A DNA stretch of 64,000 nucleotides from assembly GCA_965203435.1 (NCBI GenBank), contig CBDBCU010000002.1:458526-522525 (forward strand). The letters run 5' to 3'. Both the position numbers and the translations under genes were made by a program. This document shows, in pieces, positions 2,045 to 49,464 of this stretch. Under the pieces are notes generated by a model that searched no databases, was not told the DNA's origin, and saw only the letters and a list, made by a program, of their open reading frames with translations. How positions within the stretch are numbered: the first letter of the stretch is position 1; each line of letters starts with the position of its first letter. This stretch comes from Dehalococcoidia bacterium (GTDB lineage Bacteria; Chloroflexota; Dehalococcoidia; Lucifugimonadales; UBA3495).

Positions 2045-2053
2045 ATTATAGCA
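2045..2053 (-). promoter_or_regulatory. extended -10 box TGCTATAAT, exactly 7 nt upstream of the paralog A ATG (leaderless-type start)
   Basis: attatagca on + strand = TGCTATAAT on - strand. Same motif and N7 spacing recur at 4446, 34200 and 37079. Confidence 0.6.
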
Positions 2054-2071
2054 TAAGGGGGCGGCCCCGCC

Positions 2072-4438
2072 TTACCGCCCGGCCGACAAATTTACCGACC
2101 ACAATTCCCCTTGGCCGGGGATATACTGGCCGGTGCGGATGGTTTTGATGGGATAATCGGGCAGGGGGACGATTGCCACGCATTCCCCGCCGGGCCGGCC
2201 GCCGTAGGTATTCAGGGGAAAATCCCGGTTCTCAAAGTTGACGGATGGGGCGGCCGGCGGCAAATCCTCCGGCCGGGCCGGGTGGATATGCAGGAATACC
2301 GGGGTTTCGTATTCGTCTTGAGTGCAGGCGGCTTTGGCGTAAAGCAGGCGGTTACGGCCGGCCTCCCGGTCAAGGAAAACGGCGAAATCCTCCGACCCGG
2401 CCGGGGGTTGCCGTTGCCGCCGCCCCTGGGCAATCAGTTCCCGCAAGCCGGGTTGGGAAAGGCTGTGCAATTCCGCCCCTAGGGTTGTCCCGCCGGGTTC
2501 GTAATTGCCGCCGCTGCGCTGCATCAGGATCAGGTCGCCGTCCCCATCATCGGGCAGCTGAATGACCGCCAGGCAAAGGCCGTCCACCCTTACCCGCTGA
2601 TTGTGCCAGGGGGCATAAAAGCCGGGCTGCGGGAAATAGGGCGGCAAGGTTTCCGGCGTCGGCGGTAGCGGCTTAACCCCAAACCACACATCCGGCCCGT
2701 CCGCCGGGCAGTTTTCCTGAATAAAGGTCAGCCGCCGGCCGTCAATATAGACATCATAATCGGCGCGGATAATCGGCTCTCCGGCCGTGGTTTGGCGGTA
2801 TATTTCCCGGTAGGCGGCAATGGCGGCCGGCGTCATTCGGGCATCGTCCAACGGCCGCGCTACACTGAGGGTATTGTTATAAAGGCGGCGGCGGTAGCGG
2901 GAATTGAAAGCCAAATCCGGCTGATACGCCGCCGGCTGGCCGGCCAAAGTATAGTCGGCGCGGCGATGCACGGTGTCGGCGGTCAACTGCTGCCGGTCTG
3001 CCGCCGGCAGGATGTTTAGATGCCGCCGGCCGGTACGCACGGTCAGAGTTTCATTTGGATGGCTGTCCAACAGGTATTGCAATCCATCCCCCGCCGCCAG
3101 TTTCCAGTAATCCATCGCATACTGCGTCCGCAGCCGCTCCGGCGTCGTACGGTTCACCAGAAAGTTGAAATAGTCGGTCTGCAAGGGATGGATTTGCGCC
3201 ATTTGCAGCAGGGTCAACCCCAAGCCTACTCCGGCCAATCCATACAATCCGGCCGGCCCATAGCGCCGGCGGGATAAGGCGGTCAACAGCCAACCGCCGC
3301 CCAAGGCCGCCAGCAGGCAAAAGGGCGCATAGAGAAAATAAAGCTGCCGCCAGCCCTCATACTGATTGGATCCCAGCAGGGCGGCGGCCAGCGGCGGCAA
3401 TAGAAAGCAGGCCGCCAGCAGCACCAGGAAACGCCGCCGGGTGTTGCGGAAAACCGCTCCGGGCCGGCGCCAGGCCCTTACCGCTACCATTGCCAATCCG
3501 ACAAAGCCCAGCAGCAAAATCGGCGGCGGCGTGGTGATGGCAAACCAGACGGCGGCGTAATGCGGCGGCAATTCGTTGGACAATAGCAATTGTCCCTGAA
3601 ACAGCTGCGGCAAAACAACCGGATGATTTACCGTCAAACTCAGGCTGGTGATCAGGTAGTCAACGGGATTGGCCCAGGCGTAGGGGGTTACGGCATACAA
3701 AGTCAGTCCGGCGGTCAAGGCAAACACTCCGGCGGTTAGCAGGATGGGTTTCCGTTCCGGCCAACCGGCCGCCCCTAGCAAATCCAGTCCCCGCATTGCC
3801 AGGGCCGCCGCCAAAAGCCCTAGCCCCATAATCCGCAGGTTGGTCAATATCCCTACGGCTATTCCCAGCAGCACAAAAGCGCCGACGGTGTCTTTGCGGA
3901 AAGCCCGTTCCAGCAGATACAGGGCGATGATGAGCAGGGCGAGAAAGGGCAGGTCTTTGCTGTTGAGGTAGGAATGGGCGTAGAGGCGGGGGTGCAGCAG
4001 GAAAAGCAGCAGGGCCAGCAGGGCGATAAGCCGATGGTCGGTTAGCCGATAAGCCAGCCGCCAGCAAAAGAAAGCGCCAATGATAAAGAGCAGGTGGGTC
4101 AGGGTCAGCCGCAGGCGGTGGACATAGTAATAATCCTCCAAGCCCAGGATCCCCTCGGCCAGCAGCAGGGGCAGCTCAAAAACCACGCCATAAACCCGGT
4201 CGTGGTAAAGCTCGGTATCGATGCGGTCGGACTGCCCGAGGATGTAGTCCCGATTGGCTTGGGCAATCTGCCGCTGCGCCCGTTCATCGTAGTTAATGCC
4301 ATAATCCCCGGCCAGCACCAAGCCGGCCATTAGGAAAAGGGCGCAGATAATCAGGCCGCCGCGGTCCATAAGGAAGTTCCGCGCCGCCCGGCGGCCGCCG
4401 GAAACTTGCGGAACTATGCGGCGCAGCGGCGGGAACAT
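2072..4438 (-). CDS. GT-C fold (PMT_2/ArnT/GT39-like) polytopic membrane protein, paralog B, with two C-terminal two-Cys modules
   Basis: ORF track 2072..4555. Start moved to ATG 4438 (MFPPLRRIVPQ...) because all paralogs begin there right after a TGCTATAAT box. Many hydrophobic segments and a PMT_2-like pattern (YGVVFELPLLLAE...LAYRL...LHPRLYAHSYLNSKD). C-terminus ...CVAIVPLPDYPIKTIRTGQYIPGQGELW. Confidence 0.8.
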   Translation of the reverse strand: MFPPLRRIVPQVSGGRRAARNFLMDRGGLIICALFLMAGLVLAGDYGINYDERAQRQIAQANRDYILGQSDRIDTELYHDRVYGVVFELPLLLAEGILGLEDYYYVHRLRLTLTHLLFIIGAFFCWRLAYRLTDHRLIALLALLLFLLHPRLYAHSYLNSKDLPFLALLIIALYLLERAFRKDTVGAFVLLGIAVGILTNLRIMGLGLLAAALAMRGLDLLGAAGWPERKPILLTAGVFALTAGLTLYAVTPYAWANPVDYLITSLSLTVNHPVVLPQLFQGQLLLSNELPPHYAAVWFAITTPPPILLLGFVGLAMVAVRAWRRPGAVFRNTRRRFLVLLAACFLLPPLAAALLGSNQYEGWRQLYFLYAPFCLLAALGGGWLLTALSRRRYGPAGLYGLAGVGLGLTLLQMAQIHPLQTDYFNFLVNRTTPERLRTQYAMDYWKLAAGDGLQYLLDSHPNETLTVRTGRRHLNILPAADRQQLTADTVHRRADYTLAGQPAAYQPDLAFNSRYRRRLYNNTLSVARPLDDARMTPAAIAAYREIYRQTTAGEPIIRADYDVYIDGRRLTFIQENCPADGPDVWFGVKPLPPTPETLPPYFPQPGFYAPWHNQRVRVDGLCLAVIQLPDDGDGDLILMQRSGGNYEPGGTTLGAELHSLSQPGLRELIAQGRRQRQPPAGSEDFAVFLDREAGRNRLLYAKAACTQDEYETPVFLHIHPARPEDLPPAAPSVNFENRDFPLNTYGGRPGGECVAIVPLPDYPIKTIRTGQYIPGQGELWSVNLSAGR

Positions 4439-4445
4439 AGGGGGG

Positions 4446-4454
4446 ATTATAGCA
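4446..4454 (-). promoter_or_regulatory. extended -10 box TGCTATAAT, 7 nt upstream of the paralog B ATG
   Basis: attatagca on + strand. Spacer 4439..4445 is 7 nt, then ATG at 4438. Confidence 0.6.
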
Positions 4455-4553
4455 TATAGCGACCGCGTCTTTACCGTCGGGGCAGTGGCATCAGCCCGAT
4501 TTAAGGGGTATAATAGATTTAACCTGGCCCCGCCGGATAAGAAAGGAATTGCC

Positions 4554-5645: not shown

Positions 5646-5712
5646 AACTTTTGATTCCTCCGGAGACAAGTTTTGCCCCATTGTAGCATATTCCAGGGAC
5701 ATTGCGGCCTAT

Positions 5713-10508: not shown

Positions 10509-10584
10509 GGGGATATAGCTCAACTGGGAGAGCGCGGCGTTCGCAACGCCGAGGTTGGGGGTTCGAGCCCCCCTATCTCCACCA
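10509..10584 (+). tRNA. tRNA-Ala (anticodon CGC), CCA encoded
   Basis: Manual cloverleaf: acceptor GGGGATA/TATCTCC with G3:U70, D arm GCTC/GAGC, anticodon loop TTCGCAA, T arm GGGGG-TTCGAGC-CCCCC. Confidence 0.9.
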
Positions 10585-10589
10585 AACCA

Positions 10590-10666
10590 GCCCCTGTAGC
10601 TCAGGAGGACAGAGCGGCGGCGTCCTAAGTCGCGCGGCGGGGGTTCGAGTCCCTCCAGGGGTACCA
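10590..10666 (+). tRNA. tRNA-Arg (anticodon CCT), CCA encoded
   Basis: Acceptor GCCCCTG/CAGGGGT, anticodon stem GCGGC/GTCGC, loop GTCCTAA, T loop TTCGAGT. The first loop base G is unusual. Confidence 0.8.
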
Positions 10667-10715
10667 TAACCGGCAAGCCTTTCCCAAGCCGGCGGTCGCG
10701 CCGGCCGGATAATGC

Positions 10716-10793
10716 AGGAGCGTAGCTCAGTCTGGCCAGAGCGCTGGTCTCCAAAACCAGTGGTCGGGGGTTCGAATCCTCCCGCTCCTGCCA
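10716..10793 (+). tRNA. tRNA-Trp (anticodon CCA), CCA encoded
   Basis: Acceptor AGGAGCG/CGCTCCT, anticodon stem CTGGT/ACCAG with loop CTCCAAA, T arm GGGGG-TTCGAAT-CCTCC. Confidence 0.9.
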
Positions 10794-17163: not shown

Positions 17164-19122
17164 CTAGTGATGGGACTGGACGCCGGATTCCAGGATTAGC
17201 CCGCAGTAGGGGCAGAACTGGAAGGACGGCTTGGTCTGACTGCCGCAATGGGGGCAGGTCACCCCCTCTTTAGTGGCCGGCTCGTTGCTCCAGGCCACAA
17301 TGCCGATAAAGCAGATTATCCCGCCGATAAAGGGAATGGGAAAGCGGATATAAGGCCAGCCCACATCCACCAGCATCCCGGCCCCCAGAATCAGCACCCC
17401 CACCGCCGTTACCAGCGGCCAGTACGAGGGACTGGGCATATGTATGGTCGCCGGGTTCACCGGAGCCTCCGGCTCCGTGATGGGATTGCCCTCGGCCGCG
17501 GCGGCCCGCTTGACAATCCAGTAATGATCCAAGCCCCGCACCTGGGGGATTTGGGCGAAGTTGTAAGCCGGCGGCGGCGAGTCAATCATCCATTCCAGCC
17601 CGGGAGCGTCCCAGGGGTCATGGCCGGAATCCTTTTCTTTCCGCAGGCTGACCACCAGGTTCAGGATGAAAGCCAGGGTGCCGGCCAGCAGCACCAGATA
17701 GCCCAGGGAGGCCAGCAGGTTCAACCCATCCCAGCCGAACTCGCTGGCATAGGTGTAAATCCGGCGCGGCATCCCGTTCAGGCCCAGGTAGTGCATCGGG
17801 AAAAAGGTAATGTTCATCCCGATGAAATAGAGCCAGAAGTGGGCTTTGCCGATGCCCTCGTGCAGCAGTTTCCCGGTCAGCTTGGGAAACCAGTAATAGA
17901 CCCCGGAAAAGATGCCGAACAGGGCGCCGCCGAACAGCACATAATGGATATGGGCCACGATGTAATAGGTATCCTGCTGCTGATTGTCCGAGGGGGCGAC
18001 GGCATGGGACACCCCGCTGAGCCCGCCCACTACAAAGAGGGCGACGAACCCCAGGGAAAAAAGCATCGCCGTTTTCAGGTCAATGGAGCCGCCCCAAAGG
18101 GTGCCAATCCAGTTAAAGATTTTCACCCCGGTCGGCACGGCGATAAGCATGGTGGTGATGGTGAACACCGACACCGCAATCGGCCCCAGGCCCACGGTGA
18201 ACATATGGTGACTCCACACCGCCCAGCCCATTATGCCGATGACGATGCCGGAAAAGACCACGACCGGATAGCCGAACAGCGGCTTGCGGGAGAAAGTGGG
18301 CAGCACTTCGGAGACGATGCCCATCGCCGGCAGAATCAGGATATAGACCTCCGGGTGACCGAACACCCAGAACAGATGCTGCCACATAATGGGATCGCCG
18401 CCGCCTTCCGGGACGAAAAAGTTGGTGCCGAAGTTGCGGTCGAAGGTCAGTTCAATCAGCCCCACGGTGATGACCGGAAAGGCCAGCACCAGCAGCACCG
18501 AAGTCACCAGGGTCATCCAGACGAACAGGGGCATCCGCATCAGGCTCATCCCCGGCGCCCGCATATTGACGATGGTAACGATGAAGTTAAAGGCGGCGGC
18601 CAGGGAGGATACGCCCAGCACCTGCAAGCCCAAGGCCCAATAGTCCAGGCCGGCGTTGGGGCTGAAGGGCTTTTCGGTCAGGTTGGCGTAGGAAAACCAG
18701 CCGGCGTCCGGAGCCTGATTGGTCAGGAAACTGGCGTTGAGCAGCAGGCCGCCAAAGAGGAACACCCAGTAGCTGAACGCGTTCAGCCGGGGAAAGGCCA
18801 CATCCCGGGCCCCGATGGCCAGGGGGATGACGAAGTTAAAGAAACTGGCGCTCAGCGGCATCACCACCAGGAAAATCATAGTGGTGCCGTGCATGGTGAA
18901 CATCTGGTTAAAGGCGTCCGGGCTGACCAGGGAATTGTCCGGCACGGCCAGTTGCAGGCGGATGATGCCGGCTTCGATGCCGCCCAGGAGCAGAAAGATG
19001 AAAGCCGTCGTCCCGTACAGAACGCCGATGCGCTTGTGGTCAACCGTAGTAAGCCAGCTCCAGAGGCCGGACTGGCCGGCCGGGCGGGCAATTACGCCGG
19101 TAGTTTCGGCTGCGGTAGCCAT
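17164..19122 (-). CDS. ctaD: cytochrome c oxidase subunit I with extra C-terminal TM segments and a terminal CxxC-x10-CxxC zinc-ribbon-like tail
   Basis: 652 aa. WLTTVDHKRIGVLY, GHPEVYILILP, HHMF and the YVLFGG family signature. Tail CPHCGSQTKPSFQFCPYCG. Confidence 0.93.
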   Translation of the reverse strand: MATAAETTGVIARPAGQSGLWSWLTTVDHKRIGVLYGTTAFIFLLLGGIEAGIIRLQLAVPDNSLVSPDAFNQMFTMHGTTMIFLVVMPLSASFFNFVIPLAIGARDVAFPRLNAFSYWVFLFGGLLLNASFLTNQAPDAGWFSYANLTEKPFSPNAGLDYWALGLQVLGVSSLAAAFNFIVTIVNMRAPGMSLMRMPLFVWMTLVTSVLLVLAFPVITVGLIELTFDRNFGTNFFVPEGGGDPIMWQHLFWVFGHPEVYILILPAMGIVSEVLPTFSRKPLFGYPVVVFSGIVIGIMGWAVWSHHMFTVGLGPIAVSVFTITTMLIAVPTGVKIFNWIGTLWGGSIDLKTAMLFSLGFVALFVVGGLSGVSHAVAPSDNQQQDTYYIVAHIHYVLFGGALFGIFSGVYYWFPKLTGKLLHEGIGKAHFWLYFIGMNITFFPMHYLGLNGMPRRIYTYASEFGWDGLNLLASLGYLVLLAGTLAFILNLVVSLRKEKDSGHDPWDAPGLEWMIDSPPPAYNFAQIPQVRGLDHYWIVKRAAAAEGNPITEPEAPVNPATIHMPSPSYWPLVTAVGVLILGAGMLVDVGWPYIRFPIPFIGGIICFIGIVAWSNEPATKEGVTCPHCGSQTKPSFQFCPYCGLILESGVQSHH

Positions 19123-19173
19123 AGAGCTTTTCCTCTCCCTGGTCAGATCTGAGGGTTACGCCGGTTTCCGATT

Positions 19174-20370
19174 TTACTTCAGGCTGAGCAGATATTCCAT
19201 CAGGTCGGAAATCTGCCGCCCGCTGAGATTGGCCTGCCCGTCGGCGGTCTGGTAGATGTTGGCCCGAGAGGCCATCAGGTTGCCCGGCTTGATAATATCC
19301 GGGTTTTCCAGCCACTGCCGCAGGTTTTCCCGGTTCAGGTCGGCCAAGCCGGCGCCAAAGCGTTCCCGGGTCGCCAGGTCGGTCAAGTTGGGGCCGGGGG
19401 CAATGCCGGTTTCGGTGGTCATAAAGCCGGTTACCCGGCCCGCCACCACTTCCGGGCTGTCGGAGCCGTTGGCGGTGTGGCAGACCACACAGCCGCCCAC
19501 GCCGTTGAATACCTGCTGCCCGGCGGTAGCCTGGGCCGACAATTCCGGCGGCTGGCCGAAACTTTCCGCCCAAGCCAGGTAATCCTCCTGCGGCAGCACC
19601 TGCACCAGAAACTTCATCTGGGCGTGGGCCGTGCCGCAAAACTCGGCGCACTGGCCGTAAAAAGTGCCGGTTTCATCGGCTTGGAACCACATATAGTTGT
19701 TGCGGGTCGGCACCACATCCACCTTGCCGGCCAGTTTCGGCACCCAGAAACTGTGGATAACATCGTCGCTGCGGAGGTTAATCTGAATGGCCCGGTCGAC
19801 CGGAATCCGCAGTTCGTTGGCGGTGGTGATGTATTTGCCGTTGCCGTCGGCGTCGGGATACTCAAACTCCCACCACCACTGATGCCCCACGGCGGTAACT
19901 TCCAGGGTATCAGCCCCCCGCGGCGGCTGATCCAGGTCAAACAGGGTGATGACCGACCAGATGCCCAAGCCCAGGATGAGGATGGTGGGAATAACCGTCC
20001 AGGTAATTTCCAGGGCGGTATGGCCGTGGGTCTGCGGCGGCAGTTCATCCTGCCCGGGCCGGCGGCGGAACTTGATGATGGCGTAAATCAGGACGCCTTC
20101 CACCAGGACGAAAACGGCGACCATCACCCAGAGCAGGACGTTGAACAGGAGCAGCTGCTTTTCGGCGACCGGCCCGGCGGTGCCGAAAGTGGACTGCTTG
20201 GCGTCCGGGGCGCACGCCAGCAGCAGGAATAAAAGGGACAACAGCCCCAACAGGGCCAGTTGCCGGCTCCGGATGGGAAAGCTCCTCGGGATACGGATTG
20301 CGGATTTACCTTTGACATCCCCGGCCGCGGCGGCCCGGGAATCTGCGCCTCGCAAGGGCAAAAGCCCCAT
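19174..20370 (-). CDS. ctaC: cytochrome c oxidase subunit II with C-terminal cytochrome c domain (caa3 type)
   Basis: ORF 19174..20475. I prefer ATG 20370 (GGGGAG SD), but the start is uncertain. CuA motif CAEFCGTAHAQM, heme motif CVVCH, lipobox-like LLLAC. Confidence 0.85.
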   Translation of the reverse strand: MGLLPLRGADSRAAAAGDVKGKSAIRIPRSFPIRSRQLALLGLLSLLFLLLACAPDAKQSTFGTAGPVAEKQLLLFNVLLWVMVAVFVLVEGVLIYAIIKFRRRPGQDELPPQTHGHTALEITWTVIPTILILGLGIWSVITLFDLDQPPRGADTLEVTAVGHQWWWEFEYPDADGNGKYITTANELRIPVDRAIQINLRSDDVIHSFWVPKLAGKVDVVPTRNNYMWFQADETGTFYGQCAEFCGTAHAQMKFLVQVLPQEDYLAWAESFGQPPELSAQATAGQQVFNGVGGCVVCHTANGSDSPEVVAGRVTGFMTTETGIAPGPNLTDLATRERFGAGLADLNRENLRQWLENPDIIKPGNLMASRANIYQTADGQANLSGRQISDLMEYLLSLK

Positions 20371-20479
20371 TTGCCAACTCCCCTTGTTTGCTGGTCTGCC
20401 GGCGAAAGCGGCGGCTTGGGGCCAAGTTTCCCCAATGCCGGGAAAAACCTTACCACAGGAATTAAACCCTGTCAACGCT

Positions 20480-30391: not shown

Positions 30392-30493
30392 AATCGGATA
30401 ATCCCTCCCGTTCCGGCCCGGATTTTCCCCGGGCCCGCGCCGGCCATTATAGCAGAGGGAAAGGCGGTTTGCCAGGGGGCGGACGGACGCCGC

Positions 30494-30760: not shown

Positions 30761-33700
30761 TTAAGGCCCGGCCACTAAACCCACCGACCACAAATCCCCT
30801 TGCCCGGGGACAAATTGCCCCGTCCGCACTTTCTTGATGGGATAATCCGGCAGAGGAACCGCCGCCAGACACTTGCCATCGAAATGGCCGCCTTGCCGGA
30901 CAAAGGCAAAGCCCCCGTGGGCAAAGCCGGCCTCCCGCCGCTCCGCCGGCAAATCGGCTACATCCTGCGGGACGATATGCAGGAAAAAGCCGGCCGCCGT
31001 ATCATCAGCCGCGCAGGATTCCCGCAAGTAAAGCAGCCGGTTATCCCGCCAATACAAGGCGAAATAATCCCGGGCCGCCGGTTCAGTGCTGGACAAGGCG
31101 GCGTAGTCAGCCCGCAGTTGGTCATATTCGGGCGCGGCGACTAACTCCACCGACCACAAATCGCCTTGGCCGGGGATATGCTGCCCGGTGCGTATTTCCT
31201 TGATGGGATAGTCGGGCAGGGCAACGGACACTAGACACTTCCCATCAAAAGGGCCGCCCCAGCGGGCAAAATCAAAACCCCGGTGGGCAAAACCGGCCGC
31301 CCGCCGCTCTGTCGGCAAAGCGGCAACATCCTCCGGGATGATATGCAGGAAAAAGCGGGCCGCCGTATCCGCCGCCGCGCAGGATTCCCGCAAGTAAATC
31401 AGCCGGTTGTCCTGAACATACAGGTCGAAATAGCCCCGGGCCGCCGGCTGCTCAACGGTCAGAGCGGCATAAGTCGCCCGCAGGGATTCCGGGTCGACCG
31501 GCGGATACCAGTTGACTTCCCAGCGGCCGACTTGCCCGGTGCGGAGGGCGGCGATGGGATAATCCGGCAAGGGAACCGTGGCCAGGCATTTGCCGTCAAA
31601 ATGGCCGCCCCAGCGCCCAAAGGCAAAATCTAGGTTGTCCTTAGCGGCCGCCGGCCCGGCCGACAAAGCGGCGGCGGCCGGGAATATATGCAGAAAGAAC
31701 GGCTCGGCCGTATCCGCCGCCGTGCAGGATTCCCGGAGATAGGTCAGCTGATTATCCTGAATATACAGGGCAAAGAAGTCCCGGAGGTCGGGTTGAATAG
31801 CGGCCAAGGCGGCGTAAGCGGCCCGCAGGGGTTCCGGGTCGGCCGGCGGATACAGGTTCTTTTTCCAGACCCCGGCCTGGCCGGTGCGGATTTCGCGGAT
31901 GGGATAGTCCGGCAGGGGATATACCGCCAGGCAGTCCCCGCCGGGTCGGCCGCCTTGTACGGACAGGTGGAAATCCCGGTTATCAAAGCCGTCGCCCCGG
32001 AGTTCCACCGGCAAATCCGCCAAGTTCGCCGGGTAGATATGCAGGGTTACGCGGGTTGTATATTCAGCAGTGGCGCAGTTCTTTTTGGCGTAGAGCAGGC
32101 GGTTACGGCCGGCCGCCTGGTCCAGGAAAACCTCAAAAGCCGCCGGCCCGGCCGGGGGCGGCTGATTCTGTCGATAGTCGGCGATAATTTCCCGCAAGCC
32201 GCGGCGGGACAGGGGGTAAAGTTCCTCCCACAAGGGCAAGCCCGCCGTCCCCCCGTCGATCCAATGCTGCTGCCGCAGGATAAGGTCGCCGTTGGCATAA
32301 TCCGGCAGTTGGAGGACGGCCAGGCAAAGCCGGCCCAGCCTTACCCCGTGCGTCTTGAGGGTGGCATAGGCCAAGTTTGGTCCCAAAGGCGGCGGCAAGG
32401 TTTCAAGATGGCGGGGAAAAATCCGCACGCCGAACCAGGCATCCGGCTCCTCCGGAGCGCAGTTTTCCCGGACAAAAGTCAGCCGCGGCCCCTCCCGATA
32501 AACATTATAATCGGCGCGGATAATCGGCTCCCGGGCCGTAGCTTGACGGTAAAGTTCCCGGTAAGCGGCGATGGCCGCCGGCGTCATCCGGGCCGCGTGC
32601 AGCGGCCGCAGGGCAATCGGAGTGTTGTGATAAATTTGCCGGGGATAAAGGGAATTAAAAGCCCAATCCGGCTGGCTGGGCTTCGGCTCCCTTAGTTCAT
32701 AATCGGCGCGGCGGCCGGCCCTCAGCAAACGCCGCCGCGCCGCCGCCGGCAGGATTTGCTGATTTTCTACGAGCTTGCTGCTCCCCAATACGACCAGCGT
32801 CTCCCCGGGATGGCGTTCCAGCAGATACTCCAGCGTCCGCCGATAGGCCAATTGCCAGTGATCCATTGCGTACCGCGTCCACAGATATTCCGGAGTAGTC
32901 CGATTCACCAGAAAGTTGAAATAGTCATGCTGCCAGGGATGGAGCTGCATCATCTGGAACAGAACCAATCCCACGCCTAATCCGGCCAAGCCGTACACCC
33001 CGGCCCGCCCCGGCCGCCAACGGGAAAAGCGGCGCGCCAGCCCGCCCAATCCCCCGGCCGCCAGCAGGCAGAAAGGCGCATACAGGAAATAGAAATGCCG
33101 CCAGTTGTCGTACTGATTGGGGCCCAGCAGGGCGGCGGCCAGCGGCGGCAGCAGGAAAGCCGCCAGCAGCAGCCCGGCAAAGCGCTGCCGGGTATTGCGG
33201 AAAACCGCCCCAGGCCGGCGGCAAAGCCCGGCCGCCACGACCGCTATTCCCGCCAGCCCCAGCAGCAGCAACGGCGGCGGCGTGGTGATGCTGAACCAGA
33301 CCACAGTGTAATGCGGCGGCAGTTCGGTGGAAAGAAACCAATCGCCCTGAAACAACTGCCGCGGCGGAACGATCGGATGATTGACCGTCAAGTTCAGACT
33401 CGTCGCCAGGTAGTCCAGCGGTCCCGTCCAGGCGTAGGGGGTGGCGGCGTACCAGGCCAGCCCGGCCGCCAGAATAAACCCTCCGCCGCTCAACAGAATG
33501 TCCCGGCGCGCCGCCCCGTTTCCGGCATAAAACAAGTCCAGCCCCCGCAGGACTAATACTGCGGGAATCAGCATTGCCCCCATAATCCGCAGATTAGTCA
33601 GCAGTCCCACGACTATTCCCAGCAGCGCAAAGGCCCCGATAGTGTCCCGGCGGAAAGCCCGTTCCAGCAGATACAGGGCAAGGATGAACATAGTGAGAAA

Positions 33701-34192
33701 AGGCAGGTCTTTGGAATTGACGAAGGAATGGGCGTAGATGCGGGGGTGCAACAGGAAAATCAGCAGGGCAAACAGGGCCAGCAGGCGATTGTTGAACAAA
33801 TGGCAAGCCAGCCGGTAGCAAAAGAAACCGCCAACGATAAAGAACAGGTGGGTTAAGGTTAAACGGAGCTGGTGGATCTGGTAATAATCCACCAGGCCCA
33901 GGGCCCGCTCGGCCAGCAGCAACGGCAGCTCAAAGGCCACGCCATACAAGGCGTGGGGGTAGGGGAGCTCCTCGAAACTGTCCCCCTGGCCCAGGATGTA
34001 GTTCAGGTTGGCAAGGGCAATCTGCCGCTGCGCCATTTCATCGGTACTGAGGCCGTAATCCCCGGCCAGGAATAACCCGGCCAGCAGAAAAAGGGCGCAG
34101 ACCAACAGGCCGCCATAGGCGGCCAGAAAATTCCGCGCCCCCCGGCTAGGACCGGAATGGGGCGGCGATATGCGGCGCAGTGGCGGGAACAT
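30761..34192 (-). CDS. GT-C fold (PMT_2/ArnT/GT39-like) polytopic membrane protein, paralog C, with five C-terminal two-Cys modules
   Basis: ORF 30761..34225 trimmed to ATG 34192 (MFPPLRRISPP). N-terminal half colinear with paralogs A, B and D. The C-terminal ~590 aa are 5 repeats ending ...LPDYPI.(E/K/A).RTGQ. Confidence 0.85.
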   Translation of the reverse strand: MFPPLRRISPPHSGPSRGARNFLAAYGGLLVCALFLLAGLFLAGDYGLSTDEMAQRQIALANLNYILGQGDSFEELPYPHALYGVAFELPLLLAERALGLVDYYQIHQLRLTLTHLFFIVGGFFCYRLACHLFNNRLLALFALLIFLLHPRIYAHSFVNSKDLPFLTMFILALYLLERAFRRDTIGAFALLGIVVGLLTNLRIMGAMLIPAVLVLRGLDLFYAGNGAARRDILLSGGGFILAAGLAWYAATPYAWTGPLDYLATSLNLTVNHPIVPPRQLFQGDWFLSTELPPHYTVVWFSITTPPPLLLLGLAGIAVVAAGLCRRPGAVFRNTRQRFAGLLLAAFLLPPLAAALLGPNQYDNWRHFYFLYAPFCLLAAGGLGGLARRFSRWRPGRAGVYGLAGLGVGLVLFQMMQLHPWQHDYFNFLVNRTTPEYLWTRYAMDHWQLAYRRTLEYLLERHPGETLVVLGSSKLVENQQILPAAARRRLLRAGRRADYELREPKPSQPDWAFNSLYPRQIYHNTPIALRPLHAARMTPAAIAAYRELYRQATAREPIIRADYNVYREGPRLTFVRENCAPEEPDAWFGVRIFPRHLETLPPPLGPNLAYATLKTHGVRLGRLCLAVLQLPDYANGDLILRQQHWIDGGTAGLPLWEELYPLSRRGLREIIADYRQNQPPPAGPAAFEVFLDQAAGRNRLLYAKKNCATAEYTTRVTLHIYPANLADLPVELRGDGFDNRDFHLSVQGGRPGGDCLAVYPLPDYPIREIRTGQAGVWKKNLYPPADPEPLRAAYAALAAIQPDLRDFFALYIQDNQLTYLRESCTAADTAEPFFLHIFPAAAALSAGPAAAKDNLDFAFGRWGGHFDGKCLATVPLPDYPIAALRTGQVGRWEVNWYPPVDPESLRATYAALTVEQPAARGYFDLYVQDNRLIYLRESCAAADTAARFFLHIIPEDVAALPTERRAAGFAHRGFDFARWGGPFDGKCLVSVALPDYPIKEIRTGQHIPGQGDLWSVELVAAPEYDQLRADYAALSSTEPAARDYFALYWRDNRLLYLRESCAADDTAAGFFLHIVPQDVADLPAERREAGFAHGGFAFVRQGGHFDGKCLAAVPLPDYPIKKVRTGQFVPGQGDLWSVGLVAGP

Positions 34193-34199
34193 AGGCCGG

Positions 34200-34208
34200 A
34201 TTATAGCA
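34200..34208 (-). promoter_or_regulatory. extended -10 box TGCTATAAT, 7 nt upstream of the paralog C ATG
   Basis: attatagca on + strand. Spacer 34193..34199. Confidence 0.6.
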
Positions 34209-34218
34209 TACCCCCTTA

Positions 34219-34379: not shown

Positions 34380-36977
34380 TCAGGGGGCCACCGCCAACTC
34401 CACCGCCCATAATTCCCCCCGCCCGGGTACATACTGCCCCGTCCGCATTTCCTTAATGCCGCCGGGATAGCCCGGCAAGGCAACGGACGCCAGACACTTG
34501 CCGTCAAAAGAGCCGCCATAGCGGGCAAAGGCAAAATCCAAGTTGGCAAAGCCGGCCGGCCGCCGTTCCGCCGACAAATCCGCAACATCTACCGGGACGA
34601 TATGCAGGAAAAAGTCGGCCGCCGTATCCTCAGCCGCGCAGGATTCCCGGATATAGGTCAAATGCCCGTCCCGCCAATACAGGGCAAAGTAGTCCCGGGC
34701 TGCCGGCGCCACGGCAGCCAGGGCGGCATAATCGGCCCGCAGTTGGTCGGGATCGGCCGGGAAATAGAGGACTTCACTCCAGCGGTCGGATTGGCCGGTG
34801 CGGATTTCCCGGATGGGATAATCCGGCAAAAGAAAGGCGGCCAGACACTCTCCGCCGGGCCGGCCGCCGTAATCGGGCAGTAGGAAGTCCCGGTTCTCGA
34901 ATCCCCCCGTCCAAAGATAAAACGGCAAATCCGCCAAGTTTTCCGGATAGATATGCAGCGTTACCAAGGTTTCATATTCGGCGGGAGAGCAGTCCCCTTT
35001 AGCGTAGAGCAGGCGGTTCTGGCCGGCGGCATCCGGCTCCCGGAAAACGGCGAAACTATCCGGCCGGGCCGGGCGGGGGCTGGCCCGCCGGGCCGCGGCG
35101 ACGCGCTCCCGCAATCCCGGCTGGGCGCGGCTGTAAAGGACCGCCCATTGGTCGCCCTCCGGCTGATCCTGGCCGATGATAAGGTCGTGGGGAGTAGCGT
35201 CGGGCAGTTGGAGGACCGCCAGGCAGGTATTATCCCAGCGCACCCCGTGACTGCGTAAGATAATAGTGGGTTCCCCTTCCCTTCCTCTTGCTGGCGCCGG
35301 CAGGAGAACTTGGGCAAAGACGCGCCGCGCCATATCCCCGGCGGCGCAGTTTTCCCGGATAAAAGTCAAAGTTCGGCCCTGGATATAAACATCGTAAGCG
35401 GCCCGGATGATGGGGGTTCCGGCCACCGTCTGCCGATAAAGTTCCCGGTAGGTTGCCACGGCGGCGGCGGTCATCCGGGATGCTTTCAGGGGTTTTACGG
35501 CCAGCAGAGTATTGTGGTAAGTCCGTCCCACCGGCAGCGCGTTAAAGGCCAAATCCGGATCGTTGCCCTGCCAAATGTAAAACATCGCATAATCCCCCTC
35601 GACGAACCCCTCCCGAAAACCCGGCTCGTCAGCCCAGACGCCCCGCACCGCCAGGGTCTCGTTGGGATGGCGTTTTCGCAGATAGTCTAGGGCCGTCGCT
35701 ACCGCCGCGTTGGGGGAACGAATCTGATACTGCGTCCGCAGATATTCCGGAGTCGTCCGGTCGACCAGGAAGTTGAAATAAAGATCCTGCAAGGGATGGA
35801 TTTGCGTCATCGCGAGGATAATCAAGCCCAAGCCAACCCCGGCCAGGCCGTACGCGCCGGCCGGCAAAACCGGCTTGGCGAATTGTCGGCGGCGGGCGCT
35901 CGAACGACAAATCCAATGCAATCCCCCGGCCGCCAGCAGGCTGAAAGGCGTATACAGGAAATAGAAATGCCGCCAATCGTTATACTGATTGGAACCCAGC
36001 AGGGCGGCGGCCAGCGGCGGCAGCAGAAAGCAAGCCAGCAGCAACCACCCAAAGCGCAATCGGGTATTGCGGAAAACCGCCCCGGGCCGGGTCAGGCTCC
36101 GGGCCAGGACCGCAACGATCCCGACGCCGCCCAGCAACAGTAGCGGCGGCGGCGTGGTAATACTGAACCAGACCAAGTTGTAATGCGGCGGCGTTTCGTT
36201 GGAAAGAATCCATTCGCCTTGGAACAACGACCACACCCGAGTGGGATGATTGACCGTCAATTCCAGGCTCGCCGCCAGGTAGTCCAGGGGATGGGTCCAG
36301 GCGTAGGGCGCGGCGGCGTACAGCGTCAGCCCGGCGGCCAGGGCGAACATTCCGGCCGTCCGCAATATGCTCCGCCGCTGCGGCCAATTCCCGGCATAAA
36401 ACAAATCCAATCCCCGCATTCCCAAGGGAGCCGCAAAGAGCATTATCCCCATAATCCGCAGGTTGGTCAGCAATCCCACCGCTATTCCCAGCAGGACAAA
36501 GGCCCCGATAGTGTCCCGGCGGAATGCCCGTTCCAGCAGATAGAGGGCGATTATGAACATACTGATAAAGGGCGCGTCTTTGGAATTGATAAAGGAATTG
36601 GCATAGATGCGGGGATGCAGGAGAAAAATAAGCAGGGCAAACAGGGCCAGCAGCCGATTGCCGAACAGCCGATAAGCCAGCCGGTAGCAGAAATAGCCGC
36701 CGATAATAAAGAACAGGTGGGTTAGCAAGGAACGGAGGTGGTGGATGTCGCCTTTATCGGTCAAGCCCAGGGCCCGCTCGGCCAGTAGCAGGGGCAGCTC
36801 AAAGGCTACGCCATACACCCGGTCGTGGTAACGCTCCGTCGCCACGCCGTCGGTCTGGCCCCGGATGTAATTCAGGTTAGCTTGGGCAATGCGCCGCTGG
36901 TTCGGCTCATCAATGTGAATGCCGTAATCGCCGGCCAGGGCCAGCCCCGCCAGCAGGAAAAGGGCGCAGACCAGCAA
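34380..36977 (-). CDS. GT-C fold (PMT_2/ArnT/GT39-like) membrane protein, paralog D, three C-terminal modules; as sequenced it is cut off from its native start by a G16 tract
   Basis: 865-aa ORF beginning at a TTG inside the first TM (LLVCALFLLAGLALAGDYG). The conserved N-terminus and promoter lie upstream in another frame (see 36978..37087). Confidence 0.8.
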   Translation of the reverse strand: MLVCALFLLAGLALAGDYGIHIDEPNQRRIAQANLNYIRGQTDGVATERYHDRVYGVAFELPLLLAERALGLTDKGDIHHLRSLLTHLFFIIGGYFCYRLAYRLFGNRLLALFALLIFLLHPRIYANSFINSKDAPFISMFIIALYLLERAFRRDTIGAFVLLGIAVGLLTNLRIMGIMLFAAPLGMRGLDLFYAGNWPQRRSILRTAGMFALAAGLTLYAAAPYAWTHPLDYLAASLELTVNHPTRVWSLFQGEWILSNETPPHYNLVWFSITTPPPLLLLGGVGIVAVLARSLTRPGAVFRNTRLRFGWLLLACFLLPPLAAALLGSNQYNDWRHFYFLYTPFSLLAAGGLHWICRSSARRRQFAKPVLPAGAYGLAGVGLGLIILAMTQIHPLQDLYFNFLVDRTTPEYLRTQYQIRSPNAAVATALDYLRKRHPNETLAVRGVWADEPGFREGFVEGDYAMFYIWQGNDPDLAFNALPVGRTYHNTLLAVKPLKASRMTAAAVATYRELYRQTVAGTPIIRAAYDVYIQGRTLTFIRENCAAGDMARRVFAQVLLPAPARGREGEPTIILRSHGVRWDNTCLAVLQLPDATPHDLIIGQDQPEGDQWAVLYSRAQPGLRERVAAARRASPRPARPDSFAVFREPDAAGQNRLLYAKGDCSPAEYETLVTLHIYPENLADLPFYLWTGGFENRDFLLPDYGGRPGGECLAAFLLPDYPIREIRTGQSDRWSEVLYFPADPDQLRADYAALAAVAPAARDYFALYWRDGHLTYIRESCAAEDTAADFFLHIVPVDVADLSAERRPAGFANLDFAFARYGGSFDGKCLASVALPGYPGGIKEMRTGQYVPGRGELWAVELAVAP

Positions 36978-37071
36978 CCCGCTGTAACTGGGGGGGGGGG
37001 GGGGGTAAAGTAGATGTCCTGCGGATAAGGCGGAAAATTTGCGGGGGGATATGGCGCGGCGGCGTAAGCAT
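36978..37071 (-). other. displaced native 5' coding segment of paralog D (ATG 37071), out of frame by one nucleotive with the main ORF
   Basis: ATG CTT ACG CCG CCG CGC... = MLTPPRHIPPQIFRLIRRTSTL + poly-Pro. 37071 to 36977 is 94 nt (3n+1). With 15 C the frame reads ...PPPPPSYSGLLVCALF, matching AAYGGLLVCALF of paralog C. Confidence 0.8.
36990..37005. repeat. G16 homopolymer (C16 on the coding strand) inside the 5' coding region of paralog D
   Basis: Counted directly: ...gctgtaact g gggggggggg ggggg taaag... Confidence 0.95.
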
Positions 37072-37078
37072 AGACGGC

Positions 37079-37087
37079 ATTATAGCA
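37079..37087 (-). promoter_or_regulatory. extended -10 box TGCTATAAT, 7 nt upstream of the native paralog D ATG
   Basis: attatagca on + strand. Spacer 37072..37078. Confidence 0.6.
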
Positions 37088-37159
37088 TAAAGCTACCGAT
37101 GGATTCCTTGCCGGCCGGGGGCAATTCCGGGGAATTGCTTATACCCGACTAATCCTCAA

Positions 37160-40604: not shown

Positions 40605-41516
40605 CTAGGCGGCCAGCAGGCCCACGCCGACCCACCAGTGTTTGCCCTTGCCGCGCCGCCGCCGTTGAAAGCCCTGGGCGGTCAGCTGCATTCCGAAAGT
40701 GCGTTGCGGCAGCGGCTGCCGGCCCTGTTCTTTACACCAGTCGAGATACGCCTGATAAAACTCCTTGGCGATAATCAGGGCATCATCACTCACGGCGCAG
40801 CGGGCGGCTACGAAGTCGGCGACCTGAGCCAGGGGCGAGGCGGCTTCCCCGGCGGCCGCGGCCAGTTCCGCGGCGGCGGCCCGAGCGGCGGCCGCTTCCC
40901 GTTCCGCCGCGGCTGCGGCGGCGGCTTTAGCCGCGGCGGCCGCTTCCTCTTGCGCCTTTTCCACCTGGTCGCTGCAAAACTGGAGCAGAGCCATATAGCG
41001 CTGCAAGCCGCCGAAATCGTCCCACAGCACTTCCTTGCCATCCAGAATAGACGCGTCCAGGGTGAAATCCACCGGCTTGACTTCGAAGCGATGCCGGTAG
41101 TCCGGGGGGCAGACCCAGACCGGAGAAAGCAAGTCCCGGCTCATAGTATTGCTGAGCAGGTACAGGGCGCAGCGGGCGGCTTTCAGGTCCGGGTCGGGGT
41201 CTTGGAGCGGCTGGCCTTTGTAGGTCAGCTCCATGGTGCGGTGGGTCTGGATGGCGGAAAAGGCGAAGGAGCCGCGGATCTGGTTGTTGATGCAGCGCAC
41301 CAGTTCCCGGTTGTCACCCAGTTGCAGGGGCGTATCCACTTCCACCGTGGCATCGTTCAGCGCCTTGAACTCCGTTTTGCCCGGCACATAGGCGGCGGTG
41401 ATGACGCCGCGCTGGGCGGCCGCCCACAGCGCAATGGACAGGGCCAGGTTCTCCTTGACCATCTTGATGTTCGATGCGGATGGCGCCACTTTGTTACCCC
41501 CTGAACTGCTGGTCAT
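40605..41516 (-). CDS. hypothetical protein: unknown ~190-aa N-terminal domain, poly-Ala/Glu linker, C-terminal domain resembling the extreme C-terminus of P4/D5-family phage-plasmid primases
   Basis: C-terminus VADFVAARCAVSDDALIIAKEFYQAYLDWCKEQGRQPLPQRTFGMQLTAQGFQRRRRGKGKHWWVGVGL fits the pattern (..C......s.ly..Y..WC...G..pls...fg..L...Gf...r...g....Gi.L). Confidence 0.55.
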   Translation of the reverse strand: MTSSSGGNKVAPSASNIKMVKENLALSIALWAAAQRGVITAAYVPGKTEFKALNDATVEVDTPLQLGDNRELVRCINNQIRGSFAFSAIQTHRTMELTYKGQPLQDPDPDLKAARCALYLLSNTMSRDLLSPVWVCPPDYRHRFEVKPVDFTLDASILDGKEVLWDDFGGLQRYMALLQFCSDQVEKAQEEAAAAAKAAAAAAAEREAAAARAAAAELAAAAGEAASPLAQVADFVAARCAVSDDALIIAKEFYQAYLDWCKEQGRQPLPQRTFGMQLTAQGFQRRRRGKGKHWWVGVGLLAA

Positions 41517-47445: not shown

Positions 47446-49464
47446 ATGCAGTTGCAGCGGATTGAGGACCTCCTGGCAACCCGGCGGCGGCCCGACAGCT
47501 TTACCCTCTTTCTGCTTTGCCTTTCCCTGCTGGGCGCGGGCTTGGCTCTGGCGCTGCACGGCGGCCGCGGCGTCCTGCTGGATTGGGATTCGGTAAATTA
47601 CATTTCCGTGGCCGACAGCCTGCTGGCCGGCGAGGGTTTCCGGCAGTTTAACGGGCTGCTGTATCGGGACTGGCCGCCGCTCTATCCCCTGCTGCTGGCC
47701 GCGCCGGGATTGGCCGGCGTTGACCCTTATCCCTGGGCCGGATGGCTCAATGCCCTGGCCTTTGCCTTGACCATTTTCGTCGTCGGCCAAGGGCTGCGGC
47801 GGCATTTGACTTCCCGGGGTCTGCTGCTGGGCGGCTGTCTGGCGGCGGCCCTGGCCTATCCCCTGACCCGGCAGGCGGCCTTTGCCCTTACCGAAACGAT
47901 TTTCATTCTGTTCACCCTGCTGGCGCTGCTGGCGGCGGAGCGGTTTCTGAACGCGGAACGGCGATCGGCTCTGCTGTGGGCGGCCCTGTTCACCGCCCTG
48001 GCTTGCCTGACCCGTTACCTGGGCTTGACCCTGGTCGTCGCTATTGTCCTGCTGCTGGCCCTGCAAAGCGGCGTCCCCCTACGGCAGCGGGCGCAGCGCA
48101 TTGGTCTCTATGCAATCCTCTCCTTGGCCCCGATCGGCTTGTGGATGTTGCGGAACTACCTGCTGTTCGGCGGTCTGACCGGCCGCCGCTCTTATGATGT
48201 ATTGACCTTTTCCGAATCCCTGACGCAAACCGGGGCGGCGCTGTCCGACTGGACGGCGTGGGGATTGCTGGTCTCCGTCGTATCCCCCTCCTGGTTGAGT
48301 ACGGCGCTGAATTTTCTGCCGGCGGCCATTCTGATGGTATTGGCCGCCGCCCTGATTTATGGACTGACGGCCGCCGGGCGCGGCGGAGGCCCGCCCCTCC
48401 TTGACTTACGGCCGCTCTATATCTTTGGCCTCTTTGCCCTCGTTTATCTAATCCTGTTCAATTTCGTGGCGCATCGCGCTAGTTTTGCCGCCGAGGACAA
48501 CAGCCGCTACATCCTGCCGGCTTGGTTGCCGCTTTTGCTGACCGCCTTGATTGCCCTGGATCGGCTAAGGCAATACATCAAGGAATGGGGGACGGATGAA
48601 AGCCGGTGGATTCTGGCCGGGCTGTACCGGGGGCGGTTTTGGCTGCGCGGCGCGCTGTTCCTGGCCTTTATCCTGTGGCTGGGTTGGCAGGTTTTCCTGA
48701 ACGGGCAGCAGATAGTACGGGCTTGGGACGGCCGGCCGGATAGCTATTCCGTCTGGGCCGAGGATGAAACCTTGCGCTATCTGCGGGAAACGGTCCGCCC
48801 GGATTCGTGGGAATGGGTACTCAGCAACCTGCCGGCGGCGACTTACATTTTTGGCGGCCGGTCGCAGCAGCAGGCCGAACTGCCTTACAACATTCCGGAT
48901 TTGCTCCAATGGATGGCCGCCGGCGATTTGGGGCCGGCCACCATCTATGTGGTCTGGCTTTACGGCTCTCCGGATGAGCATTATTACGGCTACGACCACC
49001 AGGATTTGCGGGATTTGCCCACGGCGGAGACGATGGCGGAATTTGACTCTGGGGTGCTGCTGCGGTTAAGGCGCGCGGCCGAGCCGGGCTTGTCTTACCG
49101 GGTAAATCTGCACGGCAACCGGGTGTTTTATCGGAAAAGCCCCTGCTTTCCCAGCGACGCTAATCCCGTTTTTTCCCTGCAAATTTACCCGGCGGAGGGG
49201 CAGAACCTGCCCGCCGACCGGCAGGAATACGGTTTTGTGGGCGAGGATTTCCGGCTGGAGGATTTCGGACGGCGGGAACAGGGCCGCTGTTATATGGAGC
49301 GAGAACTGCCATCCTATCCCATCCGCGAAATCCGCACCGGGCAGTATCGCATTGGCGCGGACGGCGCGGCGGTAAATATCTGGCAAGACGGTTTCCGCCG
49401 GGAAACCCTCCGGGAGCCGCTGCGCCCGGCCCGCCCCCGGCGCTGGTCCCGTTTTGGTAATTAA
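47446..49464 (+). CDS. GT-C fold (PMT_2/GT39-like) membrane protein, distant paralog E, with one C-terminal two-Cys module
   Basis: YRDWPPLYPLLLAAPG... is a typical PMT_2 pattern. The C-terminus NRVFYRKSPC...FSLQIYPAEGQNLPADRQEYGF...GRCYMERELPSYPIREIRTGQY matches the module of paralogs A-D. Confidence 0.85.
   Translation: MQLQRIEDLLATRRRPDSFTLFLLCLSLLGAGLALALHGGRGVLLDWDSVNYISVADSLLAGEGFRQFNGLLYRDWPPLYPLLLAAPGLAGVDPYPWAGWLNALAFALTIFVVGQGLRRHLTSRGLLLGGCLAAALAYPLTRQAAFALTETIFILFTLLALLAAERFLNAERRSALLWAALFTALACLTRYLGLTLVVAIVLLLALQSGVPLRQRAQRIGLYAILSLAPIGLWMLRNYLLFGGLTGRRSYDVLTFSESLTQTGAALSDWTAWGLLVSVVSPSWLSTALNFLPAAILMVLAAALIYGLTAAGRGGGPPLLDLRPLYIFGLFALVYLILFNFVAHRASFAAEDNSRYILPAWLPLLLTALIALDRLRQYIKEWGTDESRWILAGLYRGRFWLRGALFLAFILWLGWQVFLNGQQIVRAWDGRPDSYSVWAEDETLRYLRETVRPDSWEWVLSNLPAATYIFGGRSQQQAELPYNIPDLLQWMAAGDLGPATIYVVWLYGSPDEHYYGYDHQDLRDLPTAETMAEFDSGVLLRLRRAAEPGLSYRVNLHGNRVFYRKSPCFPSDANPVFSLQIYPAEGQNLPADRQEYGFVGEDFRLEDFGRREQGRCYMERELPSYPIREIRTGQYRIGADGAAVNIWQDGFRRETLREPLRPARPRRWSRFGN

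Follow-up and report, generated by a model that had tools for sequence, protein, structure and literature searches.

A tandemly repeated two-cysteine module at the C-termini of GT-C membrane proteins of a Dehalococcoidia bacterium: a previously unassigned domain family

We analyzed a stretch of 64,000 nucleotides (nt) from a Dehalococcoidia bacterium of the phylum Chloroflexota (contig CBDBCU010000002.1, positions 458,526 to 522,525), hereafter called the window, which has a G+C content of 62.5%. Five genes of this window encode membrane proteins of the glycosyltransferase GT-C type, and after the last hydrophobic segment of each protein we found a module of 115–128 amino acids (aa) containing two cysteines 41–48 residues apart. 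In total, 12 copies of the module are present at the C-termini of the five proteins. The genes and their modules, with positions counted in the window, are as follows:

1–2037, minus strand: GT-C gene cut by the left window edge, with a type 1 module at 31–405
2072–4438, minus strand: two-module GT-C gene, with a type 2 module at 2075–2452 and a type 1 module at 2453–2836; identical to the 788-aa protein P0027
30761–34225, minus strand: open reading frame (ORF) of the five-module GT-C (PMT_2) gene, 1154 aa from the ORF start; the likely start codon is the ATG at 34192, with TATGCTATAAT 7 nt before it
32948–34192, minus strand: membrane GT-C core (PMT_2) of the five-module gene, matching the core profile with E = 7.6e-210
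34380–37071, minus strand: three-module GT-C gene, with modules at 34383–34766, 34767–35117 and 35118–35474; the ORF of its body begins at the TTG at 36977
47446–49464, plus strand: single-module GT-C gene of another subfamily, with a module at 49018–49398 (Cys 567 and Cys 615)

Copies were counted with a profile hidden Markov model (HMM) of the module applied to six-frame translations, which gave at least one copy in 1–2037, two in 2072–4438, five in 30761–34192, three in 34380–36977 and one in 47446–49464, with E-values per copy from 1e-38 to 1e-51. These counts agree with those of an earlier note on this DNA, once its letters B and D are paired with the right genes. The five copies of the largest array, from the C-terminus inward, are as follows:

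30764–31135, minus strand: copy 5 (type 3), residues 1031–1154, Cys 1071 and Cys 1119
31136–31507, minus strand: copy 4 (type 3), Cys 949 and Cys 997; 77% identical to copy 5 in nucleotides and 72% in amino acids
31508–31852, minus strand: copy 3 (type 3), Cys 834 and Cys 880
31853–32203, minus strand: copy 2 (type 2), Cys 717 and Cys 765
32204–32587, minus strand: copy 1 (type 1 variant), Cys 589 and Cys 634; LPDY retained, RTGQ gone

The boundaries proposed earlier were right for the last three copies, whereas for the first two they had enclosed only the cores, and the array extends about 57 nt past position 32530, at which it had been ended. Both cysteines, previously described as invariant, are indeed unchanged in all 12 copies of the window and in all 89 diverse modules taken from homologous proteins.

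The copies of the window fall into three subtypes. Type 1 is the first copy in every case and retains LPD(Y) and the Gln in the absence of RTGQ; type 2 is the second copy in every case, and the lone copy of 47446–49464 is closest to it; type 3 comprises all later copies, which are 55–71% identical to one another. The terminal copy is of the best-conserved type. In a profile–profile comparison with hhalign, types 1 and 3 aligned with a probability of 98% (E = 2.6e-13) with both cysteines in register, so the first copy is a homologous variant of the repeat, as had been claimed. Pairwise comparisons between copies gave numbers of synonymous substitutions per site (dS) of 0.57–1.4 and ratios of nonsynonymous to synonymous rates (dN/dS) of 0.26–0.5; on these grounds the array is old and has been maintained under purifying selection. 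The age and maintenance of the array, both suggested previously, are thus supported by these values, but the accompanying claim of copies diverged at the nucleotide level requires an amendment, because the last two copies are still 77–80% identical in DNA. They were the only repeat of the module array detected in the window DNA by Tandem Repeats Finder (period 366, 2.0 copies, 80% matches).

We then searched exhaustively with HMMER through 1.84 billion cluster representatives (clusters at 50% identity), and obtained a family of 2,192 representatives at E ≤ 1e-3, of which 565 were found at E ≤ 1e-30. Proteins of this family carry 1–10 copies of the module, and the lengths of close homologues increase by about 117 aa at a time (788, ~906, ~1020, ~1150, ~1260 and 1418 aa), in correspondence with two to seven copies. 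Three residues, C41, C89 and P96, never vary among the 89 diverse copies, and four others, L95, Y98, Q107 and W116, are conserved in at least 90%; the polar and aromatic motifs FFLH, N.DF, LPDYPI, TGQ and W are kept even across very diverse copies. When loci were retrieved with the four type 3 copies, four loci were obtained, all from metagenome-assembled genomes (MAGs) of Dehalococcoidia (Chloroflexota); this retrieval used narrow back-translated patterns, and its result is not a measure of the taxonomic range. The expansion into several genes seen in the window is general in relatives, with four to five tandem genes at loci L001 and L005: one Dehalococcoidia MAG contains five tandem paralogues within 20 kb, and four paralogues stand in a row on a metagenome contig of 4.4 Mb.

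No named domain of the libraries searched corresponds to the module, in agreement with the earlier note. The copies of the window matched no family of Pfam-A (2025) or NCBIfam 20, the 89 diverse copies scanned at E-values of up to 1 gave no recurrent Pfam or NCBIfam family, and a profile search of all Protein Data Bank (PDB) sequences with the module gave a best E-value of 1.5. An AlphaFold2 model of copy 5 built from the 89-sequence alignment had a predicted local distance difference test score (pLDDT) of 95.8 and a predicted template modelling score (pTM) of 0.88; in this model a helix at the N-terminus leads into about nine strands, with three short helical turns. In a full-length model of the two-copy protein, types 1 and 2 show the same pattern of a helix followed by strands as the isolated type 3 model. 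Foldseek searches with the module model found no significant match in the PDB (best E = 0.12, TM-score ≤ 0.42) or in BFVD (best E = 0.043), and the weak PDB matches were immunoglobulin (Ig)-, fibronectin type III (FN3)- and cupredoxin-like sandwiches and accessory domains of glycosidases. A literature search returned no relevant description of a C-terminal repeat on bacterial PMT_2 or GT-C enzymes.

With 62% G+C, the window contains many spurious overlapping ORFs, and a repeat in such DNA might be no real domain but a compositional or gene-calling artefact. This explanation is refuted by the profile E-values of individual copies (down to 1e-51), the thousands of homologues, the purifying selection and the confidently predicted fold, and we assign it practically no probability. 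We conclude that the module is a previously unassigned domain family that is real, old, conserved and confidently folding. Two other identities were considered and rejected. A weak match to Subtilosin_A (PF11420, a model of 35 aa) was observed in the stretch GKC..PLPDYPI..TG (window 31520–31588, residues 880–902 of the five-module protein) and also in the homologues P0072, P0086, P0096, P0100 and P0179; homologues with several copies pass the Pfam threshold only through summing over repeats (e.g. 43.6 bits versus a cut-off of 25), and in the cases examined in detail no individual stretch was significant. We regard the match as almost certainly spurious, and public annotation may mislabel multi-copy homologues as bacteriocin-related. 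C-terminal sorting domains of the type IX secretion system (T9SS) occur as single copies on secreted proteins, not as tandem arrays on polytopic membrane proteins.

The variation from 1 to 10 copies in single-unit steps, the sandwich-like fold with its nearest weak matches among Ig/FN3-type domains and the helical linkers between copies would also suit a set of inert, ligand-free spacers, which would form a rigid stalk in the manner of Ig-like or Big repeats or act as a ruler of glycan length. A stalk should present something at its end, but the array is C-terminal in 304 of the 305 proteins examined, with nothing sizeable after the last copy and hence nothing to present. Moreover, the conservation of the terminal copy and a set of conserved polar and aromatic motifs that exceeds the needs of a spacer argue against this explanation, which we consider unlikely. 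The sole protein with a further domain beyond the array is P0279 (2220 aa), in which that domain is a carbohydrate esterase family 4 (CE4) deacetylase.

The membrane parts to which the arrays are attached were identified as GT-C cores. Four of the window proteins passed the gathering cut-off of PMT_2 (PF13231; 26.1 bits) with 28.4–37.7 bits, and the protein of 1–2037 matched the core HMM of the family with E = 3.6e-198. The core of 47446–49464 has no significant BLASTP similarity to the cores of the other four; this protein has the module in common with them but not the core. The earlier description of the five as paralogues is corrected accordingly: it holds for the module, but not for the GT-C core of this protein. 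The same protein showed a sub-threshold match (29 bits, cut-off 200) to the LA_3751/LA_3752 putative glycosyltransferase family of NCBIfam, and relatives with a similar core (~33% identity) carry three to six modules each. A motif GDYG..DE follows the first transmembrane (TM) helix in four of the window proteins, and D45, D51 and E52 (P0027 numbering), which are acidic and lie in the first outer loop, are conserved in at least 90% of 59 homologues. The full-length AlphaFold model of the two-copy protein (mean pLDDT 74.9) contains eleven membrane helices, and matched STT3, AftA, ALG9, ArnT and PglB (Foldseek probability 1.00, E = 4.5e-5 to 1e-3), as well as Emb-type structures (7bvc, 7bvf and 6x0o). 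The PMT_2 score and the fold together bear out the placement of the module after a PMT_2-like core, and the host enzymes are ordinary PMT_2 members.

An extracytoplasmic location of the module had also been suggested, and the topology of the two-copy protein is in agreement with it. The N-terminus contains 10 Lys or Arg residues in 65, the predicted cytoplasmic loops are rich in Lys and Arg (seven lie in the 18 residues that separate TM8 from TM9), the 49 residues of the long loop that follows TM7 include neither, and the positive-inside pattern holds at every loop. With eleven helices, an internal N-terminus and Lys/Arg-rich loops on alternate sides, we infer from topology rules that both the C-terminal array and the first loop with GDYG..DE lie outside the cell. 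To our knowledge, every solved GT-C enzyme with a soluble C-terminal domain has that domain outside. The window further encodes cytochrome c oxidase subunits I and II (17164–20475, minus strand; subunit I has a C-terminal DUF7575 match), which indicates an aerobic organism, and extracellular disulfide formation fits an aerobe. Given the invariance of the two cysteines, the location outside and this aerobic character, the cysteines probably form a disulfide that pins the module.

Next, the fusion partners of the module were surveyed in 113 representatives scanned with Pfam. PMT_2 cores were found in 28 of them. Single cases of the other GT-C-type families GtrII, GT87 and DUF2079, of Polysacc_deac_1 (CE4), of an arylsulfotransferase and of a fragment of glucose/sorbosone dehydrogenase (GSDH) were also found, together with one Wzy_C O-antigen-ligase protein with ten module copies and two module proteins with GDSL/SGNH domains; in addition, an SGNH-like protein with one module copy is encoded at the Dehalococcoidia locus L004. 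Every recognizable partner works at the outer face of the membrane, on glycans or lipoglycans of the envelope. These fusions, together with the occurrence of the module in the window on two GT-C cores without significant BLASTP similarity, suggest that the module is mobile among enzymes of envelope glycans. In a separate observation, a recurrent N-terminal partner region with several TM helices, found in P0159, P0160, P0168, P0217, P0262, P0270, P0279 and P0304, contains the motif LFFFLH(Y/H)LGNQ; it matched nothing in Pfam or NCBIfam, and may represent a second unassigned membrane family.

PMT-family enzymes glycosylate proteins, and the cores match both PMT and PMT_2 profiles, so that the modules could instead recognize a protein acceptor (an S-layer or secreted protein) for O-glycosylation, in the manner of the MIR domains of eukaryotic PMTs. 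Such a role appears improbable to us, since PMT_2 also includes enzymes that act on lipids and glycans, ArnT among them, and the module occurs on Wzy_C, GtrII, GT87, CE4 and GDSL enzymes, for which the substrates known are glycans or lipoglycans. The varied chemistry of the enzymes that bear the module could also be explained by a role in self-association or in attachment to another envelope component, such as a sheath or an S-layer lattice, rather than in substrate recognition; tandem extracytoplasmic repeats often fix proteins to wall layers. A polytopic protein has its place in the membrane already and would gain little of obvious value from such anchoring, and we regard this explanation as very unlikely.

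The reading that we favour is that the array is a multivalent envelope-glycan-binding module, a mobile accessory of enzymes that build or modify glycans. The proposal rests on the mobility of the module, its C-terminal and predicted extracytoplasmic position, its tandem arrangement, its conserved aromatic and polar motifs and its glycan-enzyme partners, and we give it about an even chance. A carbohydrate-binding module is expected to be an autonomous fold on a carbohydrate-active enzyme; here, the module was modelled confidently as a stand-alone fold and is borne by enzymes of the GT-C, Wzy_C, CE4 and GDSL kinds. The 11-TM GT-C core would move a sugar from a polyprenyl-phosphate donor at the outer face of the membrane, while the array of one to five modules would grip a polymeric acceptor, or a wall glycan nearby, at several points at once and thereby keep the enzyme on its substrate. 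Copy number could then set avidity and reach, and module subtype and paralogue identity could set specificity. Several observations weigh against glycan binding. The module does not detectably resemble any of the known carbohydrate-binding modules; its best Foldseek matches are generic sandwich domains. No glycan-synthesis operon was found in the neighbourhood within the window. Furthermore, the partner spectrum is only partly known, as about two thirds of the scanned partners have no Pfam match in the N-terminal membrane part (an NCBIfam scan of these partners gave nothing useful), and several partner families are represented by a single protein each.

Similar accessory domains are known from mycobacterial EmbA/B/C and AftD, in which beta-rich domains are likewise located outside a polytopic GT-C core, after the last TM helix; the carbohydrate-binding modules of these enzymes are thought to hold the polysaccharide acceptor, and their cores are structurally related to those of the window by Foldseek. 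However, no PDB chain, and hence none of the Emb and AftD accessory domains, was matched significantly by the module model in Foldseek, and, in contrast to these domains, the module is repeated in tandem 1–10 times, contains two invariant cysteines and occurs also on enzymes other than GT-C. LysM, SH3b and choline-binding repeats are small extracytoplasmic units of variable copy number on envelope-active enzymes, with avidity arising from multivalency, but they are unrelated to the module in sequence and predicted fold, and are usually found on secreted or single-anchor proteins rather than on 11-TM transferases. The closest functional parallels would thus be the periplasmic modules of Emb and AftD and the tandem wall-binding repeats, although by sequence and predicted fold the module is neither. 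The MIR domains of PMT1/2/4 are also lumenal or extracytoplasmic accessories of a PMT-family GT-C enzyme and are implicated in substrate handling; they differ in being a single-copy beta-trefoil within a loop, whereas the module forms a C-terminal tandem array of another predicted architecture. The window hosts resemble PMT_2/ArnT-like enzymes in passing the Pfam gathering score, in matching GT-C structures and in keeping D45, D51 and E52, but no characterized member is known to have a C-terminal module array. In summary of these comparisons, the proposed accessory role is of a known kind, the tandem C-terminal format is unusual and the domain family was previously unassigned. Accessory domains determine the targets of GT-C enzymes, and few have been characterized outside mycobacteria and eukaryotes. 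With the module family defined, thousands of proteins would be better annotated and the poorly understood cell envelope of the Chloroflexota type would become more accessible; the family could also supply a new glycan-binding scaffold.

In the three-module gene, the 5΄ coding region contains a long homopolymer:

36990–37005, minus strand: C16 tract (G16 on the plus strand) in the 5΄ coding region of the gene at 34380–37071

This tract is the only homopolymer of at least 9 nt in the window, in which other G or C runs do not exceed 8 nt and about 7e-4 runs of 16 are expected by chance. At a length of C16 the tract puts the body of the gene in another frame than the ATG at 37071, and C15 or C18 would restore a normal N-terminus. 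Orthologues with 80–86% identity have C11, C13 and C15 at the same site: C11 (L006, 1440–1450) and C13 (L007, 1442–1454) are out of frame and the genes are called truncated, and C15 (L008, 1554–1568) is in frame and reads ...PPPPPSYSGLLVC. Other intact orthologues have PPPP or PPPL at the tract site. As the tract differs in length among orthologues and switches the reading frame, it looks like a site of slipped-strand phase variation of the three-module gene; alternatively, the differences in length might be errors in the assembly of homopolymers. The flanking sequence of the tract had no match when a metagenome was scanned for it. Tracts were also observed in other module loci: G24 divides a GT-C paralogue into two ORFs in a Dehalococcoidia MAG (L001, 9055–9078), C21 lies about 50 nt upstream of the SGNH-like one-module protein (L004, 8927–8947), and a five-module array is closely followed downstream by a GDSL-like gene that has C11 within its first codons (L002, 12977–12987).

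The three-module gene resembles the phase-variable poly-G/C glycosyltransferase genes of Neisseria, Haemophilus, Campylobacter and Helicobacter, in which the length of a 5΄ coding tract decides the frame. Those genes encode soluble Leloir enzymes of host-adapted pathogens, whereas the present gene encodes a GT-C enzyme of environmental bacteria, the named relatives being exclusively MAGs of Dehalococcoidia (Chloroflexota). If real, the poly-C switch would add free-living environmental bacteria to the organisms with classical phase-variable surface glycosylation. More tentatively, we raise the possibility, which we hold to be rather doubtful, that the module founds a new carbohydrate-binding-module family of unseen fold, specific to Chloroflexota-like envelopes, and that with paralogue expansion, copy-number change and poly-C switching it constitutes a surface-glycan contingency system of free-living environmental bacteria, for example against phages.

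Upstream of the GT-C genes, the four related paralogues each have an exact TATGCTATAAT, which contains the extended –10 consensus TGnTATAAT and ends 7 nt before their ATG:

2045–2055, minus strand: exact match to TATGCTATAAT
4446–4456, minus strand: exact match
34200–34210, minus strand: exact match
37079–37089, minus strand: exact match

These four are all the exact matches in the window. When one mismatch was allowed, six matches were found versus 0.28 expected, with the extra copies at 5680–5690 and 30446–30456. The placement of the element supports the use of the shorter start codons, and the sequence pattern suggests that each paralogue is transcribed independently, possibly as a leaderless mRNA. 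Two further features of the window were noted. At 40605–41516 on the minus strand, between GT-C genes, an ORF gave a Pox_D5-like match (primase/helicase C-terminal; E = 5.6e-7), and this ORF may have been left behind by a mobile element or prophage. Three tRNA genes are present within 280 nt at 10509–10790 on the plus strand.

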